Source of the DNA: a virus | Lineage: Duplodnaviria > Heunggongvirae > Uroviricota > Caudoviricetes | Virus record (IMG/VR): IMGVR_UViG_2534681935_000039 | Location: 1 to 30,262 of that record | Strand: one strand, 5' to 3' | Length of the DNA stretch: 30,262 nucleotides | Shown here: positions 17,887 through 24,424 of the stretch, one piece after another | Numbering within the stretch: the first letter of the stretch is position 1 | Layout of the letters: every line of letters begins with the position of its first letter | Program-made: the position numbers and the translations under genes | The notes under the pieces: model-generated | What the model saw: only the letters and a program-made list of their open reading frames with translations | What the model was told of the DNA's origin: nothing | Databases searched by the model: none

Positions 17887-18775
17887 GGTTAACCTCCTGC
17901 GGCGGTTCCGGTAGCGGAATCCAGTGAGTTGCTTGCTCAATACCATTACCCGGCTTAATCGTTGCATCTCCGCGCCGAAAGGTGCTTCCGGTATAGCGTG
18001 CGGAGCATATTAGCGGTTCAACCAGAGAGCTATCGAAATTCACCGAAATAAGCACGTTCTGGCCCTTTTCAGGCATTCGCTCACTACAGCTTATCCAACT
18101 ATCCGGAGTTACCGGATAGTTGCCCGATAGTGCATTCTGCTCCAGTGATGCTTTTACAAACCACGCTGCCTGAACTATAACGCCATGAATCCAGCGCAAA
18201 TCAGCATCGCGATCTTTCTTTTTCATCTTTTCGCCACTTAAGGCCTTGCTTATGTGGCTGCGTACCAGGTCTTCATGTAATTCCTTCGCCTCCTCAATGG
18301 TGAAACCACCAGGCAGAAGAGCCGGAGTTACCGGAGAGCTGGTTGACGCTTCCGGGATTTTCCGAAAATTATTGGTTGACGAATCTTTATTTTCCCGAAA
18401 GTTTCCGGACTGAAGCATGGCTTCGCGGCAATCGTTCCAGCCTGTAGCGTATGCAGCCGCTTTGCTGCTGCCTTCAACTGGCGCATCCTGCCAATACATT
18501 TCTTCCGTCACTATCGGCGCTGGAGGGGCGGCAAATAGATATCCGCCAAAGTCAGGAAGCTCTCTAATGGCCTGTACGAATTTTTGTTTGCCTACGTCAA
18601 CCCCTAATGGGTAATGAGCTATAATCTTTGCCACCGGCTCTGCTTCCAGCGATGCCAGAGCAATCCGTGCCAGTTCTTCCGCTTCTTCTGCTGGCAGTAC
18701 AACGTTGCTACCCGGTCCGTATGTTTCGCGCCACTGCTTGATTGTCAGCAGTCGCTCTTTGGTTATAGTAGTCAT
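17879..18775 (-). CDS. hypothetical phage protein with DUF551-like C-terminus (298 aa)
   Basis: C-terminal ATHWIPLPEPP matches the recalled DUF551 signature of lambdoid nin-region proteins; GAGG RBS. Confidence 0.5.
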   Translation of the reverse strand: MTTITKERLLTIKQWRETYGPGSNVVLPAEEAEELARIALASLEAEPVAKIIAHYPLGVDVGKQKFVQAIRELPDFGGYLFAAPPAPIVTEEMYWQDAPVEGSSKAAAYATGWNDCREAMLQSGNFRENKDSSTNNFRKIPEASTSSPVTPALLPGGFTIEEAKELHEDLVRSHISKALSGEKMKKKDRDADLRWIHGVIVQAAWFVKASLEQNALSGNYPVTPDSWISCSERMPEKGQNVLISVNFDSSLVEPLICSARYTGSTFRRGDATIKPGNGIEQATHWIPLPEPPQEVNRG

Positions 18776-18981
18776 TTGTTAATCCTCAAAACTTTATGCC
18801 CGGGCGCAAAAGCACGCGTTTTGTCTTTGCTTATTCGCCAGCCATCCTTGCGCGCCTCTTTTGCACAGCCAGCCCATGACGTACCTATATACTCACCGAA
18901 GTCTGGCGACTTATATTTGCCATCTGTACATTGGAGGCAATCACAATAGAGATGCATGGTGTAACTTGCAGCGATAGCCAT
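18772..18981 (-). CDS. small Cys-rich hypothetical protein (69 aa from ATG 18981; ORF track extends to 19053)
   Basis: AAGGAGAG RBS directly upstream of ATG 18981; ATGA overlap with downstream gene. Confidence 0.4.
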   Translation of the reverse strand: MAIAASYTMHLYCDCLQCTDGKYKSPDFGEYIGTSWAGCAKEARKDGWRISKDKTRAFAPGHKVLRINK

Positions 18982-18982
18982 A

Positions 18983-19171
18983 TCACTCTCCTTTAGTGCG
19001 CAAGTGGTTTTTCCAGCGGTTTTGCGCCGCGCTGGGCTTTTTGCAAAAACCACAATCCATCATCCCGTAATATTTCATCAACCCCATCCGTCGGTTGCTG
19101 AGTCTCACCCACTGCCAGACGCCAGGAGCGTTTCTACGAACTAACAGAATCTTTGCTTTACGGTTTTTCAT
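18983..19171 (-). CDS. small basic protein (62 aa), paralog of 19168..19344
   Basis: ORF track; ATGA overlap with upstream small ORF; N-terminus MKNRKAK shared with neighbour. Confidence 0.35.
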   Translation of the reverse strand: MKNRKAKILLVRRNAPGVWQWVRLSNRRMGLMKYYGMMDCGFCKKPSAAQNRWKNHLRTKGE

Positions 19172-19344
19172 CTTACAGCGTACCCTTTCTTCCGCCTGTT
19201 CTGTGACGCAGTAGGCTTACGCTTTGCGGCAAAAGCCACCTGACCAAATGGATGGAGTACCGCTATCTTATGGTTGCTAATAACCAGCTCCACCACACGC
19301 ACAGGTCGCTGTAAAAAAAGTCGTTTTGCCTTACGGTTTTTCAT
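19168..19344 (-). CDS. small basic protein (58 aa), paralog of 18983..19171
   Basis: Hand-translated; ATGA overlaps at both ends; below ORF-track length cut-off. Confidence 0.3.
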   Translation of the reverse strand: MKNRKAKRLFLQRPVRVVELVISNHKIAVLHPFGQVAFAAKRKPTASQNRRKKGYAVR

Positions 19345-19517
19345 CGCTTTGCTCTCCTGCGTCTCTTTGCTGCTCGTCGTGCCGCTGCAATACCGGTATG
19401 GCGGCGCTTTGGTGCCGGGATGATGTTGTCAGCCATCAGGACATACGGCTTTGCAATTAGCGCAGAAGCCCAAAAACGAGTCGGGTACGGTAACAAGCCG
19501 ATACATGCCACACGCAT
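19341..19517 (-). CDS. small Arg-rich protein (58 aa)
   Basis: Hand-translated; TAATG overlap with stop of 19517..20275; C-terminus AAARRAAKRRRRAKR. Confidence 0.3.
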   Translation of the reverse strand: MRVACIGLLPYPTRFWASALIAKPYVLMADNIIPAPKRRHTGIAAARRAAKRRRRAKR

Positions 19518-20275
19518 TACTCACCTCCTTTGATGCGAATGCCTGCGGCGCGGATTGCATCGATGACTTCAGAAACTTTGTATGCCATTACCGTTTGGTA
19601 ATCATCGTGAAAATCTGTTCGATGAAGCATGCTGCTACGTTCCGGGAGCGATATTTCCCGAGCATCCAGTTCCTTAACGCGTTCCTCCAGTTCGTAGACC
19701 CTGCATTGTTCTCTATCATCAATCAGATATAACCCAAGACATTCGCTTTCTACCCAACCGCCAAAATCATGATCGTAACGCTCACATGAAAACTCACCGT
19801 CACCGTCCTTTGTTGGAATGGTGTAACTATCTAATGGGCCACCATATGTCGGCACATTTCCCAATGTTGGATGCTCAATCCACATGAAAAATGCACGTCC
19901 GGTTATTGGGCAAAGATCTGGCCGCCATTGGTTACGAACAGCCTTGGTTTCGGATAATTCTTCAGCGTGTTGTTTTACTTCCTCAAGCTCAACTCTCAGC
20001 TTCCCTACCGTTAGCGCAATATCCTCGTTCTCCTGGTCGCGGCGTTTTATGTATTGCTGGTTTCTTTCCCGTTCATCCAGTAGTGCCAGCACGGTTTCTG
20101 GTCCGGTCAGAAATTTGAAGGCGTTGAGCGCATCAATATCCACACCGTAATCCTTAAGTTCCTGTTCAGTTAACAAATCATCATCAACTGGCAACATTAA
20201 CAGGCGTTCCATTGCCGGAATTGCACGCTCTGCCGCCTCACGCAGTGCCTGATAGTCAATTGTCATTCTCGCCAT
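19517..20275 (-). CDS. hypothetical protein, possibly ead/Ea22-like (252 aa)
   Basis: Acidic coiled-coil-like N-terminus; vague recollection of ALREAAE / LALLDER motifs in Ea22-like prophage proteins. Confidence 0.4.
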   Translation of the reverse strand: MARMTIDYQALREAAERAIPAMERLLMLPVDDDLLTEQELKDYGVDIDALNAFKFLTGPETVLALLDERERNQQYIKRRDQENEDIALTVGKLRVELEEVKQHAEELSETKAVRNQWRPDLCPITGRAFFMWIEHPTLGNVPTYGGPLDSYTIPTKDGDGEFSCERYDHDFGGWVESECLGLYLIDDREQCRVYELEERVKELDAREISLPERSSMLHRTDFHDDYQTVMAYKVSEVIDAIRAAGIRIKGGE

Positions 20276-20907
20276 CCTTCACAGTTGTAATCACTACAGC
20301 CTTCAAAATCATATGGGCTGTACTGCCAGGTTATTTTTCCGCAATGCGGACAATTCCAACGCACCTTCCCGCTTCGCGACTTCTTTCTTCTGTTCTGCTC
20401 TTTCAACCAGTCAGGCATGACCAAACCTGCGCCCTGAACCATTGTTCTGCGGTTAAAGTTATTGATATTGAACGTCCGACGCTTTGCTGCATCAGCAATG
20501 GAAAATGGCAACCAAACTATTCCTGGTTCGTTTTTGTTGGCGACGCTAAAGATGGTCGCTTTACTGAAGTCATCTGTTGGCAATCCACCGTGTTGAAGCC
20601 AGTAAACATCGTTGCCGTTCCAGCTACCTTTTTTGTAGGCCACATACGCAGTGCAATCTGACTCAATCAGGCTTTCTGTGGGGATGTACTGGCAATCAAC
20701 GTGCCACACAGCCATTGCATCCACGCTATCAGCGCAAACAGGCTGATCGATATCTCGTCCACAATTCCAGGCTTTTTGGGCTTCTTCCAGCGTGTAAACA
20801 TGAGCGCGATCGATATCAGAACTGTAACCATTGCCGTTATGGCAATGGAATGAGGCGTTATTACCCACAGTTTCACGCAAGCACATCATGTAAAAGCGGT
20901 TATTCAC
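20263..20907 (-). CDS. Cys/His-rich hypothetical protein with C-terminal zinc-ribbon-like motif (214 aa)
   Basis: Multiple Cys/His clusters including NCPHCGK...C..C at the C-terminus. Confidence 0.4.
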   Translation of the reverse strand: MNNRFYMMCLRETVGNNASFHCHNGNGYSSDIDRAHVYTLEEAQKAWNCGRDIDQPVCADSVDAMAVWHVDCQYIPTESLIESDCTAYVAYKKGSWNGNDVYWLQHGGLPTDDFSKATIFSVANKNEPGIVWLPFSIADAAKRRTFNINNFNRRTMVQGAGLVMPDWLKEQNRRKKSRSGKVRWNCPHCGKITWQYSPYDFEGCSDYNCEGWRE

Positions 20908-21211
20908 TGGTTGCCTCCTTTGCTGGGCTTTCTAACTTCTGAGTGGTTGTATCAAACTCAAACAACTTAACCACGTCATCAAACAGGACATAATCGCCAT
21001 CAGAATCTTCAGTCATGTCAGCGCCACAATCCTGACCGAACGAGTCACAACCATCCATATCAAGCTCGTATCGCTTGAGTTTTGCGATATTTGATAAATT
21101 CAGCGCCAGTACAGCAAGGTCATAAACCTCATCAGCGGTATACCCGGCACCATGCCCATACATTTCAATACGGGATATGATTTCTTCTACACGTTGTTTT
21201 GTGATCGTCAT
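20900..21211 (-). CDS. acidic hypothetical protein (103 aa)
   Basis: ORF track; overlaps neighbours by a few nt. Confidence 0.4.
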   Translation of the reverse strand: MTITKQRVEEIISRIEMYGHGAGYTADEVYDLAVLALNLSNIAKLKRYELDMDGCDSFGQDCGADMTEDSDGDYVLFDDVVKLFEFDTTTQKLESPAKEATSE

Positions 21212-21708
21212 TTTTGCTCACCTTCCTGTTCTTCCAGAAAAATACGCATAGCCTCAAGCATCTCTTCGGTGCCATACGGTGGCAACTTGTCACGCAGGAT
21301 GTGTTCAATGCTGTTAATGAACTTGCGGATTGCTTTGCGTTCAATTTCAGCCAGGAAAGCGTCGGTGGCTGGGGTTTCCGTGAAGTTGTCCTCCCAACCG
21401 TAGTACTCCTGACGACAGAAGTTATTAAATTCCTTCTCCGACTGTTTAAGCTCCGCATTCTCTGCTGCCAGCACCGAAAACTTCTCGTGTGCCAACTTAA
21501 CAGCCGCATCAGCCTGCTTAATTGACTCAATCGCTTTCTGCTGGTCTTCGGCCAGCTCATTAGCACGCACCAGTTGCACTTCCAGTTGCGTTGCCAAATC
21601 GCTGATCAGCTTTGCCACACTACGCATATCAACGGCACCACATTCTGCTTTCAGTTCCGAAGCCATCTCATACCCGGCGGCAACTAACCCTTTGATATTA
21701 CTTTCCAT
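21208..21708 (-). CDS. coiled-coil hypothetical protein (166 aa)
   Basis: ORF track; helical A/E/K/Q-rich composition. Confidence 0.4.
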   Translation of the reverse strand: MESNIKGLVAAGYEMASELKAECGAVDMRSVAKLISDLATQLEVQLVRANELAEDQQKAIESIKQADAAVKLAHEKFSVLAAENAELKQSEKEFNNFCRQEYYGWEDNFTETPATDAFLAEIERKAIRKFINSIEHILRDKLPPYGTEEMLEAMRIFLEEQEGEQK

Positions 21709-21769
21709 CTTTACCCTCGCTTATCCACATAACTTATTGATTACATTGATAACTAAAAAGATCGTCGAT

Positions 21770-22114
21770 TCAGAACTCTTCGATGTTCCAGCCACCACCT
21801 GCTTTCTTTGGCTTAACCGTTACCCCGATGATTCGGAACGGATACTGATCTGCGGCGACTTTGGTTTTCACCCTGGCGTCGTCGGTCCAGAAACCTTTCA
21901 CTTCGTGCAGTTCCATCTCGCCGGTGGCGAGCATCACAGCGAAATCTGGCGTATAGAACGTGTTATCAGCTAACCGCAGCTTGATACCCTCGAATCGATA
22001 CCAGACGATTTCTCCTGCACGTTTACGCAGCTCAAGGTGCTGGCAATACGCATATTCTGTTTTGTTTATCTGGCCTGTTTTGAGTCGACCAAGAGCCTGT
22101 ATCTGTTTTCTCAT
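21770..22114 (-). CDS. DUF1064-like phage protein (114 aa)
   Basis: N-terminal MRKQIQALGRLKTGQ and YTPDF...HEVKG resemble the recalled DUF1064 family; first gene downstream of an operator-flanked promoter. Confidence 0.45.
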   Translation of the reverse strand: MRKQIQALGRLKTGQINKTEYAYCQHLELRKRAGEIVWYRFEGIKLRLADNTFYTPDFAVMLATGEMELHEVKGFWTDDARVKTKVAADQYPFRIIGVTVKPKKAGGGWNIEEF

Positions 22115-22117
22115 GAT

Positions 22118-22132
22118 TTACCCCTGAGGTAA
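22118..22132. promoter_or_regulatory. operator-like dyad S3: TTACCC-CTG-AGGTAA
   Basis: Abuts the -10 of the minus-strand promoter and overlaps the RBS region of 21770..22114. Confidence 0.5.
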
Positions 22133-22160
22133 TTAAAAACCACATAAGACACGAAATCAA
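22132..22160 (-). promoter_or_regulatory. early promoter (minus strand): -35 TTGATT, 17-bp spacer, -10 TTTAAT
   Basis: Read on the minus strand at 22160-22155 and 22137-22132; flanked by S4 20 bp upstream and S3 overlapping the -10 end. Confidence 0.45.
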
Positions 22161-22179
22161 TAGATTTTAGAATATTTTA

Positions 22180-22194
22180 TTACCTCATAGGTAA
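22180..22194. promoter_or_regulatory. operator-like dyad S4: TTACCT-CAT-AGGTAA
   Basis: Perfect dyad, extended to ATTACC...GGTAAT. Confidence 0.55.
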
Positions 22195-22231
22195 TTATCG
22201 AGACGTAAAAAAATGCGCTATCGCGCTGGTA

Positions 22232-23032
22232 TTACTTGATAAATCCTGACGCCTTTCCCCGCCTGTATTCCTCCATCAGCCACTGCGCCGGTGTTATTCC
22301 CCCCAGGGTGGCGGCGTTAGGCATACACCCGAAACTTCGCCCTGGTGGATGGTAAACGTCTCTCCCTGTGTCCGGAGGCGTACTCATGGGTTCTGGCTTT
22401 GCCTGTATGCTGATCACCGGATCGGGTATCTGCTGTCCGGAAGCCACCTTTTTCGCCCAATCATCGAGCAGCCTGCGCGCGTGTTTCTCAACCTCAATCT
22501 CGCTAAGCTGGCGCTGATACATTGCACGGCGGGTATCACATACGACCCAGTACATAACCGGATGCCGCCACGGGAATCTTTCGGGACCACCAGGATATAA
22601 ACTTTTTTCCTTGCTGTACCGGTGAAACTCCGCCATCACATCGTCAATGGTGACGCCAAGAACCATCTTGCTGTCTTTGCACCACTTGATAAATTGCCCT
22701 GGAGACGGCCAGAACGGAGATTCACTGGCGCGGGCGTGGCGCATACCAGCAGAAACCTGTTCACGGGTTCGGATCCCCCCTTCGGCAAACGCAGCAATCC
22801 ACTGCTGTTTTGCAGCAACTTCCTGCTCTGGCGTCTTCAGGTTGGTTACCACTGCCGCCGGAAACAGTTGTTTCAGCTGTTTAAAAAGGGCATCAACAAG
22901 CCTCTCTGCTGACATGTTCACCACATTGTCATTGTTGACGTACTGATGCTCATAACCTGACATGCGAGAAAGGGCTTCTCCGTCACGGTTTTGTATCGCG
23001 GTAAAAACGTTGTTCACAAGAAATCCTCCCAT
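22232..23032 (-). CDS. replication protein P-like helicase loader (266 aa; start may be GTG 23017 after a GGGAGG RBS)
   Basis: Block SPFWPSPGQFIKWC and surrounding WIAAFAEGGIRTREQVSAGMR closely parallel lambda P as recalled; follows the O-like gene with overlap. Confidence 0.7.
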   Translation of the reverse strand: MGGFLVNNVFTAIQNRDGEALSRMSGYEHQYVNNDNVVNMSAERLVDALFKQLKQLFPAAVVTNLKTPEQEVAAKQQWIAAFAEGGIRTREQVSAGMRHARASESPFWPSPGQFIKWCKDSKMVLGVTIDDVMAEFHRYSKEKSLYPGGPERFPWRHPVMYWVVCDTRRAMYQRQLSEIEVEKHARRLLDDWAKKVASGQQIPDPVISIQAKPEPMSTPPDTGRDVYHPPGRSFGCMPNAATLGGITPAQWLMEEYRRGKASGFIK

Positions 23033-23829
23033 GCTTCAGGGCTGTTCCAGTGCGGAACGTTGTTATCAGGTAATGTTGATTGCTTCTGTCTGCTAATCTG
23101 CAGCCGCCTTGCCAGCTTCTGCTCCCACTGTGCCTGATGGTATGCCTTACCCTCAGCCATCCAGTAAATTCTGAACTCTGCAAGTTCCTGTGCCGTTGGC
23201 AGACTGTCCAGGTATATCCCCTGCAATGAGCTTTTCCGGAGAAAGTCATCTGATGGCTGCCATTGTTCATGCATGACAAATTTGCCTAATTGCCCTGGCC
23301 CACCAGGAGGAACAAAGTTATTCATCACGGCGTTGTTTGCGCCGGGGTCATGAGGCACAGAATCCCCGCTTTTTGTCCTGCTCTCCCTCTCTTGGTTAAA
23401 TGGCTGGTTATATGACTGGTTCTGGATCCCGTTTTTGGGATCATTCAACATCCCGTTTTTGGGATCATTCAACATCCCGTTTTTGGGTATATTCCCGTTT
23501 TCGGTAACATTACCGTTTTCGGGTTCATTACCCCCTTCCCGGTTGCCTTTAATGTTCCCGTTTTTGGTTATATTAAGAGAGAAAACCCGTACTCTTTTCG
23601 TCGCCCCCTTTCTCTCTCCGGTATCTGAAATAAGCCCCATTTTCATGAGCGATATAAGTCCGGCCTGCACGGTTTTTTTATTCAGGCAAGTGTCTTTAAC
23701 GAGGCGTTCTATGCTGGGGTAGCAGAGGTTATATTCATCGGCTCTGTCAGCCATCGAGAGCAGTATGAGCTTTAATGACGAGCTACCTGGATCTGTCTCC
23801 CAGGCCCAATCTGTTGCATGTCTGCTCAT
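23014..23829 (-). CDS. replication initiator, lambda O-like N-terminal DNA-binding domain with DnaT-like C-terminal region (271 aa)
   Basis: N-terminal LKLILLSMADRADEYNLCYPSIERL pattern like lambda O; internal tandem DNA repeats encode the NGN...KNGMLNDP linker; GGAG RBS. Confidence 0.65.
   Translation of the reverse strand: MSRHATDWAWETDPGSSSLKLILLSMADRADEYNLCYPSIERLVKDTCLNKKTVQAGLISLMKMGLISDTGERKGATKRVRVFSLNITKNGNIKGNREGGNEPENGNVTENGNIPKNGMLNDPKNGMLNDPKNGIQNQSYNQPFNQERESRTKSGDSVPHDPGANNAVMNNFVPPGGPGQLGKFVMHEQWQPSDDFLRKSSLQGIYLDSLPTAQELAEFRIYWMAEGKAYHQAQWEQKLARRLQISRQKQSTLPDNNVPHWNSPEAWEDFL
23426..23570. repeat. iteron array (candidate replication origin) inside the O-like gene
   Basis: Six copies of ATCCCGTTTT(T)GGGAT-like units starting near 23426, 23450, 23474, 23492, 23509 and 23555 (periods 24, 24, 18, 18, 45 bp). 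Confidence 0.6.
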
Positions 23830-23844
23830 GATTAATCTCCGCTA

Positions 23845-24045
23845 TCAGCTTGAATGTTGTGGGGAGGAATTAATCATGATCTGCTTAATCTCTGCCCTGA
23901 TGCGACGGTTTGATTCCATGGTGCACTCAACACAGTGTCCGTTGTAAACCCAGCGTTCACTGTCATGTCCGTGCTTACATGGTTTTCCGGTGTAGTAGCG
24001 TTTAAGTCCGCGCTTTGCGGCATCAATACGTGTAATGATTTCCAT
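23845..24045 (-). CDS. small Cys/His-containing hypothetical protein (66 aa from ATG 24045; ORF track extends to TTG 24096)
   Basis: GKPCKHGH...NGHCVEC motif; occupies the cII-like position between cro-like and O-like genes; function not inferred. Confidence 0.35.
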   Translation of the reverse strand: MEIITRIDAAKRGLKRYYTGKPCKHGHDSERWVYNGHCVECTMESNRRIRAEIKQIMINSSPQHSS

Positions 24046-24123
24046 GGTAAGCCCTGTTATTAGTATTGGGATTACGATTATTTTGTGCTGACACAAAAAA
24101 AGATCAACCAGATTTGGTTTTTA

Positions 24124-24138
24124 TTACCTTTGAGGTAC
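24124..24138. promoter_or_regulatory. operator-like dyad S5: TTACCT-TTG-AGGTAC (one mismatch)
   Basis: Located just beyond the cro-like terminator and upstream of the 66-aa gene. Confidence 0.4.
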
Positions 24139-24149
24139 GAATAGATATG

Positions 24150-24171
24150 AAAAGACCGCCGGATGGCGGTC
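24150..24171 (-). terminator. rho-independent terminator after the cro-like gene
   Basis: GACCGCC-AUCC-GGCGGUC 7-bp stem followed by UUUU on the minus transcript, 23 nt after the stop at 24194. Confidence 0.6.
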
Positions 24172-24193
24172 TACAGAGGGTTGTTGCCAGATA

Positions 24194-24424
24194 TCATGAG
24201 TAGAAGAAGTATGCCAGTTCCGCTTTTGAGCGCAGCCATTGTCTTGTTTTACAGGCTTTAAAAAGCCCATTCATCAATACCTTACCTGGCATTTTGCGCT
24301 TACCTGTTAAGTGAGTCTGGATATAGTGACTCGTCGTTCCGGCTTCCTGTGCGAAGGCTTCACGCTCATCCGGAGTAAGTGCAAGCCAGTGCTTTTTGAA
24401 ATCGAAATGTCCGTTATCGCTCAT
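24194..24424 (-). CDS. Cro-like small HTH regulator (76 aa)
   Basis: First gene of the leftward early operon, divergent from the repressor gene across a three-operator region; helix-turn-helix-like stretch EAFAQEAGTTSHYIQTHL. Confidence 0.45.
   Translation of the reverse strand: MSDNGHFDFKKHWLALTPDEREAFAQEAGTTSHYIQTHLTGKRKMPGKVLMNGLFKACKTRQWLRSKAELAYFFYS

Follow-up and report, generated by a model that had tools for sequence, protein, structure and literature searches.

Do three very short reading frames that follow one another on one strand of a tailed-phage genome encode proteins, and if so, what could these proteins do? The question is raised by positions 18983-19517, minus strand, of a 30,262-nucleotide (nt) stretch of viral DNA (IMG/VR record IMGVR_UViG_2534681935_000039, positions 1 to 30,262; here called the window). 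An initial annotation, made from the letters alone, had noticed in this interval three small basic open reading frames (ORFs) of 58, 58 and 62 amino acids (aa), and we find all three in place. In our reading the ORFs are real, translationally coupled genes in a recombining cassette array and their products have a binding or regulatory function; we give this combined statement a probability of roughly 60%. Taken separately, the statement that they are real, coupled genes in such an array is very probable, while the binding or regulatory function is less likely than not.

Three coupled reading frames from two protein families

ORF1 (19341-19517, minus strand; 58 aa, MRVACIGLLPYPTRFWASALIAKPYVLMADNIIPAPKRRHTGIAAARRAAKRRRRAKR) belongs to family PHROG 13831, whose profile it matches over positions 1-58 of 58 (E 1.1e-41). 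ORF2 (19168-19344, minus strand; 58 aa, MKNRKAKRLFLQRPVRVVELVISNHKIAVLHPFGQVAFAAKRKPTASQNRRKKGYAVR) and ORF3 (18983-19171, minus strand; 62 aa, MKNRKAKILLVRRNAPGVWQWVRLSNRRMGLMKYYGMMDCGFCKKPSAAQNRWKNHLRTKGE) are both full-length matches to a second family, PHROG 1380 (positions 1-60 of 62, E 6.5e-23, and positions 1-62 of 62, E 1e-40, respectively). The two proteins are 37% identical (BLASTP, E 5e-10); both open with MKNRKAK and carry a QNR element close to the C-terminus, which reads QNRRK in ORF2 and QNRWK in ORF3. The initial annotation had called them paralogous and had pointed to the common start and the QNR.K element, and the comparison indicates that they are indeed tandem, diverged paralogues of PHROG 1380. 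The upstream paralogue, ORF2, has a middle part of type B and a beta tail, QNRRKKGYAVR followed by the stop; the downstream paralogue, ORF3, has a middle part of type A and an alpha tail, QNRWKNHLRTKGE followed by the stop. The N-terminal half of the ORF1 protein is moderately hydrophobic; its C-terminal tail (APKRRHTGIAAARRAAKRRRRAKR) is Arg-rich, as had been described, and ends in AKRRRRAKR. The calculated isoelectric points are 12.0 (ORF1), 12.0 (ORF2) and 11.3 (ORF3), and the net charge of the three proteins ranges from +13.6 to +14.7.

The initial annotation also held that the ORFs overlap each other and the flanking genes. This is correct for three junctions: the stop of an upstream Ea22-like gene and the start of ORF1 have a common TAATG, and the ORF1/ORF2 and ORF2/ORF3 junctions each have an ATGA overlap. 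At the fourth junction ORF3 is joined to the downstream gene by TGAtATG, which contains a 1-nt spacer and no overlap. A purine run that resembles a Shine-Dalgarno (SD) sequence precedes each of the three starts. The SD of ORF1 (AAAGGAGG) lies 5-12 nt upstream of the start, within the last codons of the Ea22-like gene (...IKGGE and stop); the whole junction, AAAGGAGGTGAGTAATG, occupies positions 19515-19531 on the minus strand. In relatives ORF1 starts with ATG or GTG (TAATG or TAGTG), and the sequence AGTA[A/G]TG at this junction is kept in 61 unique contexts. A -1 frameshift at GAAAAAC, which would fuse ORF1 to ORF2, was considered and rejected by inspection: the A-run comes after the ORF1 stop, and the heptamer is out of the required frame.

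A HMMER search of 1.84 billion representatives placed PHROG 1380 in 48 clusters at 50% identity, nearly all with proteins of 55-70 aa, and the hosts are phages of Escherichia, Salmonella, Shigella and Yersinia only. With tblastn the family was found in 146 of 50,697 phage records; it occurs in Shiga toxin (Stx) phages, phiV10-like phages and P1-like phage-plasmids. A diverged member of 69 aa with about 50% identity is present in the virulent Vequintavirinae phage Av-05 (NC_025830.1, 70807-71016), where it stands among small hypothetical genes; the family thus extends beyond temperate phages. Among species-representative genomes there was no PHROG 1380 member except for an ORF2-type protein on a single 228-bp contig (JQCU01000388.1, 'Acinetobacter idrijaensis'), which is most likely enterobacterial or phage contamination.

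The alignment of the family reveals three motifs, all of which are present in ORF2 and ORF3: M[KN]NRKAK at the N-terminus, [RK][ILV]SN[RH][RK] in the center and SAAQNR[WR]K near the C-terminus. In 30 aligned sequences N3, R4 and R52 are invariant, and S25, N26, Q50 and N51 are conserved to at least 90%. The approximately 35 residues between the motifs are far more variable; at least eight middle types, deeply diverged from one another, can be told apart.

Selection acts on the proposed frames

Viral contigs and public records provided 245 loci for an analysis of selection; these contain 365 copies of PHROG 1380, which correspond to 120 unique DNA sequences. The proposed frame is the only one that is open in all 84 typed unique alleles. 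The ratio of non-synonymous to synonymous polymorphism (pN/pS) for the PHROG 1380 types and for ORF1 is 0.11-0.43 in the proposed frame and about 1-5 in most of the other frames. The exceptions are the type D and type E sets, which are noisier, and the antisense frame that has its third codon positions in common with the proposed one. A low pN/pS in the latter is a known artefact, and this frame contains stops in most alleles; it is open in 7/10 alleles of type C and in 3/24 of type D. The values for the individual genes are 0.11 for ORF2 (12 unique alleles) and 0.22 for ORF3 (24 alleles). For ORF1 (37 unique alleles of 177 nt) the in-frame ratio is 0.35; of the five other frames, three give about 1-1.8, and the antisense frame with common third positions gives 0.31.

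When the PHROG 1380 sequences are pooled and divided by region, pN/pS is 0.01 in the first ten codons (pS 0.137, pN 0.001), 0.49 in the middle and 0.22 in the C-terminal part. The same picture emerges from single codons in 96 unique full-length DNA sequences. The codons for MKNRKAK vary only by synonymous changes, with the exception of two K-to-R replacements. In the QNR motif the Gln is encoded by CAA or CAG, the Asn by AAC or AAT and the Arg by CGC, AGG, CGA or AGA. By a strict definition 345 of the 365 copies are intact, and several of the 20 others differ merely in their start (MATNNRKAK). Furthermore, the proteins are still recognizable at about 35-45% identity and keep their length. The test of conservation and of dN/dS (the ratio of non-synonymous to synonymous divergence) that the initial annotation had suggested thus speaks for coding: the frame-specific pattern indicates that ORF1, ORF2 and ORF3 are genuine coding sequences whose proteins are subject to purifying selection.

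Two variants of the ORF3 type, P0054 and P0060, deserve mention. Their middle part shifts into another frame (...GETQQPTDGVNETLRDDGLWF...) and returns to the original one before QNRWKNH, so that both conserved ends are retained around a completely different middle. They are either functional alleles or sequencing or assembly errors.

These data also bear on the possibility that the ORFs are translational relays only, which would keep the mRNA covered with ribosomes, prevent the action of Rho and deliver ribosomes to the downstream genes, while the peptides themselves have no function. The unbroken chain of overlapping or abutting genes from about 21708 to 17274 is what one expects from a relay. 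So are the stricter conservation of junction geometry than of gene content (see below), the hypervariable middle of PHROG 1380, the occasional absence of ORF1 and the existence of ORF1 alleles with frame-shifted tails. However, a relay predicts a pN/pS close to 1 and not the values of 0.01, 0.49 and 0.22 along the gene or of 0.11-0.43 overall. Nor does it account for three motifs that are held at the amino acid level through synonymous codons down to about 35% identity, for the conserved protein length, or for the two or three diverged tandem copies. We consider it quite unlikely that the ORFs are relays and nothing else.

The direct repeat is part of the coding sequence

The initial annotation had reported that a DNA repeat occurs twice in the region. 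The exact 16-mer that it gave, CTTACGGTTTTTCATC, is present only once; an exact 15-mer, TTACGGTTTTTCATC, is present twice, at 19158-19172 and 19331-19345, and none is expected from shuffled sequences. This 15-mer extends to a direct repeat of 21 nt with one mismatch (95% identity) and a spacing of 173 nt. Copy 1 (19152-19172, minus strand; GATGAAAAACCGTAAAGCAAA) is the 5' coding end of ORF3 and copy 2 (19325-19345, minus strand) that of ORF2. Hence the repeat is the conserved 5' coding end (ATGAAAAACCGTAA) that is common to the two paralogues.

The repeat had been taken as a reason to think of a non-coding element that is read through by chance, e.g. a structured RNA or a protein-binding repeat that happens to be open in one frame. 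The 173-nt spacing of the two copies would fit such an element, as would an island of 57 nt at the 3' end of ORF3 that is conserved even at third codon positions (see below). Apart from the fact that the repeat encodes the common N-terminus, this explanation is at odds with the frame-specific selection and the synonymous-only variation. RNA searches also argue against it. A scan of positions 18000-20500 with Rfam, at E values up to 10, yielded no match within the ORFs on their own strand and three matches in all, each far below its gathering score. The only one that touches the region is to the speF leader and lies on the plus strand opposite ORF3 (E 3.3; 12.7 bits as compared to a gathering score of 37). 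The folded RNA of the whole region was no more stable than shuffled sequences (z = +0.55). A hairpin in ORF3, formed by an inverted repeat at 19004-19015 and 19042-19053, is not conserved in the other middle types. A non-coding element in place of the genes is therefore extremely improbable.

A cassette array joined by conserved islands

Across about 150 non-redundant loci the gene content varies while the geometry is fixed: Ea22, ORF1, a first and a second PHROG 1380 gene and the next gene follow each other at distances of -1, -4, -4 and +1 nt. The arrays contain one to three copies of PHROG 1380 in many combinations (B-A as in the window, A, D, C-D, G-E, B-A-D and others), with or without ORF1. 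The tail of a copy is related to what follows it. In all 52 cases a beta tail of the ORF2 type precedes a further PHROG 1380 copy, and the two genes overlap by ATGA. After an alpha tail of the ORF3 type, which ends in AAAGGAGAGTGAtATG, at least eight different, unrelated genes are found.

The sequence around this last junction is conserved as an island (18979-19039, minus strand), which comprises the last ~57 nt of ORF3, the stop, the spacer base and the next ATG (...CCCAGCGCGGCGCAAAACCGCTGGAAAAACCACTTGCGCACTAAAGGAGAGTGAtATG) and which contains the SD of the downstream gene. Across 95 unique contexts the identity is at least 93% at most positions of the island and at least 0.84 at nearly all, third codon positions included; the flanks on both sides fall to 40-70% identity. 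The island is nucleotide-identical among types A, C and F, the middles of which differ by a synonymous divergence (dS) of 0.8 to more than 2. Divergent members of the family keep the SAAQNRWKNH that is encoded here through synonymous changes, and the constraint at the protein level is therefore real as well. A shorter island at the 5' end consists of the first ~22 nt of the PHROG 1380 gene. At loci that lack ORF1, the 3' end of Ea22 is fused to the 3' end of ORF1 via the common sequence CAAAGGAG.

Together, these observations indicate that the block is a recombining cassette array with variable copy number, with or without ORF1, with swapped middles and with many downstream genes. The exchange points would be the nucleotide-conserved islands at the gene ends, i.e. 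ATGAAAAACCGTAAAGCAAAG on the 5' side and the ~57-nt island ending in AAAGGAGAGTGAtATG on the 3' side. Besides encoding protein, the islands supply the ribosome-binding site for the gene that follows. Ribosomes would be handed from gene to gene by termination-reinitiation, and the small proteins would thus be co-produced with Ea22 early after induction or infection. Coding-embedded islands of this kind offer a testable example of how accessory genes may be re-linked between lambdoid phages, phiV10-like phages and P1-like phage-plasmids.

The position of the SD sequences leaves a trace in the proteins. The purine runs lie within the last codons of the preceding gene, where AGG AGA is read as RR and AAA GGA GAG as KGE. 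The basic or "KGE" tails before the stops (RRRRAKR, KKGYAVR, TKGE) are therefore partly a by-product of the SD of the next gene. The same may explain a feature of Ea22. It has been reported that all Ea22 proteins end in K/R-G-E, with 'significance unknown' (PMC7093339). In the sequences examined here this tail is encoded by AAAGGAG(GT/A)GAGTAATG or by AAAGGAGAGTGAtATG, which represent the SD, the stop and the start of the next coupled gene (19515-19531 and 18979-18994 in the window). The ea22 gene of lambda ends in GCATCAAAGGAGAGTGAgatcgg; the junction recurs there, the bases after it contain no ATG, and the next annotated gene, ea8.5, lies 191 nt downstream. Most simply, the '+GE motif' of Ea22 is a by-product of the conserved junction, in which AAAGGAG is read as Lys-Gly-Glu.

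The regular order of the genes raises the possibility that ORF1 and a PHROG 1380 protein form a two-component module, such as a toxin/antitoxin pair or a heterodimer, in which order and coupling set the stoichiometry. In the ORF1-first sample, which covers the best 80 loci only, 60 unique contexts could be judged, and in 59 of them the gene after ORF1 is a PHROG 1380 member that overlaps it by ATGA; the family is found without ORF1, and ORF1 was never seen without the family. This linkage, however, may just reflect the common junction island. The partners are both strongly basic (+13.6 and about +14), which is unfavorable for a tight complex and unusual for a toxin/antitoxin pair, and neither has a match to a toxin or antitoxin family in Pfam or NCBIfam. 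We regard a two-component module as very unlikely.

Predicted structure and possible function

The three proteins have no match in Pfam, in NCBIfam or in sequence and profile searches of the PDB, and neither homology nor fold connects them to any DNA- or RNA-binding family. A first AlphaFold2 model, based on 19 sequences, had a predicted local distance difference test (pLDDT) score of 65 and gave no Foldseek match in the PDB at E ≤ 0.001 (best E 0.41). The present model of ORF3 has a pLDDT of 79.4 (five models, 75-79) and predicts helices at residues 4-12 and 48-59 and strands at 19-25, 28-33 and 38-43. On the basis of this model one expects compact products of the alpha-beta3-alpha type whose net charge is about +14. 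The central motif [RK][ILV]SN[RH][RK] would be at the tip of a predicted beta-hairpin and SAAQNR[WR]K in the C-terminal helix.

A type I toxin or a small membrane peptide was also considered and was rejected because none of the proteins has a segment of transmembrane grade. The maximal Kyte-Doolittle averages over 19 residues are 1.24 (ORF1), 0.96 (ORF2) and 0.21 (ORF3), and the threshold for a transmembrane segment is about 1.6.

The initial annotation had suggested that the proteins could be nucleic-acid-binding regulators. By analogy with other proteins of the exo-xis/ea region, the products would most likely bind either nucleic acid or an acidic factor of host or phage and in this way modulate host physiology or phage development.

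An alternative is that they are effectors of anti-defence or superinfection exclusion. They would then be diversifying inhibitors in which each middle type is directed against one target in a host or a competitor phage; the islands would serve to reshuffle alleles and to stack copies. This idea is in line with the deep divergence of the middle types, of which there are at least eight, between conserved ends and with the many combinations in tandem arrays of one to three copies. It also agrees with the location of the genes, which occupy accessory regions not only in temperate phages and phage-plasmids but also in one virulent Vequintavirinae phage; many anti-defence genes have been found in accessory regions of such phages. 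On the other hand, the proteins have no match to a known anti-defence protein, a comparison that did not include the PADLOC library of defence-system proteins. The dN/dS values within and between types are below 1, and positive selection was not detected. Moreover, the best-known inhibitors that mimic DNA are acidic and not basic. Anti-defence or exclusion is, in our judgment, an unlikely role. A bolder version, which we likewise think has only a small chance of being right, combines both aspects. In this version PHROG 1380 would be a new small alpha-beta3-alpha fold with three Asn-Arg motifs (in the arm, at the hairpin tip and in the C-terminal helix) as binding surface. The locus would at the same time be a cassette-shuffling array, whose islands (5' ATGAAAAACCGTAAAGCAAAG; 3' ...AAAGGAGAGTGAtATG) let unrelated backbones swap, stack and re-link alleles in the style of an arms race, i.e. 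for anti-defence or exclusion. If it is true that the proteins bind nucleic acid or block defence, they would represent a new small fold family.

Several observations weigh against our reading of real genes in a recombining array with a binding or regulatory function. First, the charge of the proteins is a weaker clue to function than it appears, because the embedded ribosome-binding sites add basic character. Second, the near-perfect identity of the 57-nt island could reflect a function at the nucleotide level and not recombination alone. Third, a supplement of ribosome profiling data from uninduced cultures of strain Sakai (PMC5597208) has no entry at the corresponding coordinates or sequences. 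Finally, some ORF1 alleles have a frame-shifted Arg-rich tail, e.g. P0131, which is found on 95 contigs; the tail may be dispensable in some lineages.

Comparison with known systems

Close parallels exist in lambda, whose genes next to ea22 reportedly affect the choice between lysis and lysogeny, lysogenisation and induction, and the physiology of the host (PMC4195576, PMC7093339). Like ORF1-ORF3 these are small early accessory genes beside ea22, and in Stx phages the ORF1 and PHROG 1380 genes sit directly downstream of ea22, which is the position of ea8.5 in lambda. Unlike the lambda genes, ORF1-ORF3 have no Pfam match to the DUF1317, DUF1382 or TraR-like families, and the block in the window has a different location, in a phiV10-like phage, where it stands after the replication genes and ahead of those for terminase. 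Kinship with Ea8.5, a hybrid homeodomain/zinc-finger protein, was rejected: BLASTP against ORF1 gave no alignment at E values up to 100, and a match from a permissive search (E 0.003, database of four sequences) vanished with default settings.

The homeodomain itself, with its WFQNRRxK recognition helix, shows a superficial likeness to the PHROG 1380 proteins, which are about 60 aa long, have a basic arm at the N-terminus and carry Q50-N51-R52 in the C-terminal helix. This relation was rejected as well; hhalign returned a probability of 1% (five aligned columns), there is no Pfam match, and the core of the AlphaFold2 model is a three-stranded sheet and not a three-helix bundle.

In lambda N an N-terminal arginine-rich motif binds the boxB hairpin in the nut site. 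In ORF1 the Arg-rich sequence is C-terminal. ORF1 has no Pfam match to N proteins, and nut/boxB elements were not searched for systematically.

Conserved boundary sequences at the module junctions of lambdoid phages are a part of the modular theory of Susskind and Botstein and have reportedly been described for HK620-type genomes. They resemble the islands of the present array in that short conserved stretches at gene ends, with diverged flanks, separate modules that are reassorted. The islands here differ in that they lie inside coding sequence, specify conserved protein motifs and include the SD of the gene that follows; furthermore, the repeated 5' island also permits a change of copy number within a tandem array.

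Existing annotation

ORF1-ORF3 do not differ from PHROG 13831 and PHROG 1380; they are the same families, and the proteins are new copies of catalogued, uncharacterized small accessory genes, real but ordinary. Identical proteins are already deposited as "hypothetical" in records of phages, plasmids and chromosomes, and we found no published function for either family in the literature. ORF3 is identical to RefSeq WP_000797279.1 and corresponds to ECs_1168 of the Sakai prophage Sp5. ORF2 is annotated in phage RCS47 as YP_009624945.1, the only one of the three that is called there. In a plasmid of strain VL7S7 with 99.9% identity, PGAP calls ORF3 and neither ORF1 nor ORF2. Next to ECs_1168 in Sp5, ORF1 is unannotated in a gap of 151 nt before ECs_1169 (NC_002695.2, 1250105-1250255).

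A similar situation exists in phage 933W (AF125520.1, 3546-4103), where an unannotated 51-aa homologue of ORF1 and an unannotated PHROG 1380 gene lie between L0068 and L0069; L0068 appears to be over-extended at its 5' end and overlaps the PHROG 1380 gene in another frame.

Annotation pipelines hence often miss ORF1 and ORF2, as the examples of 933W, Sakai Sp5 and the nearly identical RefSeq plasmid show. The exo-xis/ea block of Stx phages, which affects decisions on lysogeny and induction that are relevant for toxin release, holds two more conserved proteins than the literature on this region considers. What the present analysis adds is a corrected annotation, the anatomy of the junctions and an explanation for the "+GE" motif of Ea22.

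Genomic setting

The window is a phiV10/epsilon15-like Escherichia coli prophage with 97-98% identity, over about 80% of 25 kb, to PAS61, phiv142-3 and O157 typing phages. Its minus-strand operon begins with a replication gene of the DnaT/helix-turn-helix (HTH) type, a lambda-P-like gene, a DUF1064 gene, three genes without Pfam match and the Ead/Ea22 gene. It continues with ORF1, ORF2, ORF3, a PHROG 926 gene, a DUF551 gene, two small genes and the gene for the small terminase subunit. Inside the ORF1-ORF3 region there are no promoter- or terminator-like sites. The initial annotation had spoken of an early accessory operon, which is right in spirit; the block, however, lies between replication and terminase genes and not at the exo-xis position of lambda.

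The ead/Ea22-like gene upstream of ORF1 (19517-20275, minus strand) matches Pfam PF13935 (E 3e-28). Its true start is likely the second in-frame ATG at 20266 and not the one at 20275; the ATG at 20266 overlaps the preceding stop as ATGA, and PGAP gives the gene a length of 750 nt in the VL7S7 plasmid. Downstream of ORF3 follows a gene for a Cys-containing protein of 69 aa (18772-18981, minus strand; PHROG 926, E 1.5e-36; RefSeq WP_000951706.1), which is coupled to ORF3 by TGAtATG and to the DUF551 gene by ATGA. This protein has no match in Pfam, NCBIfam or the PDB. It contains the pattern C-x-C-x2-C ... C (CDCLQC...C), which could bind a metal ion. Next in the coupled chain is the gene with the DUF551 domain (17879-18775, minus strand; Pfam PF04448, E 5e-20).

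The block from Ea22 to DUF551 is also present in the exo-xis region of Stx phages (933W, Sakai Sp5) and in P1-like phage-plasmids (RCS47, 98.9% identity; the 94.7-kb plasmid of strain VL7S7, 99.9%). In the phiV10-like backbone (16373-24200 of the window) the Ead/Ea22 block stands between the replication genes and the small terminase gene, and P1-like phage-plasmids hold it in yet another accessory region. These different positions imply that the block moves between unrelated phage backbones.

A last observation concerns the replication gene of the DnaT/HTH type (23014-23829, minus strand). It contains three adjacent arrays of tandem repeats at 23393-23532, with a 24-nt unit (ATCCCGTTTTTGGGATCATTCAAC) in 2.6 perfect copies, an 18-nt unit in 3.1 copies and a 12-nt unit in 2.4 copies. 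By analogy with lambda O, these arrays look like origin iterons embedded in the initiator gene.

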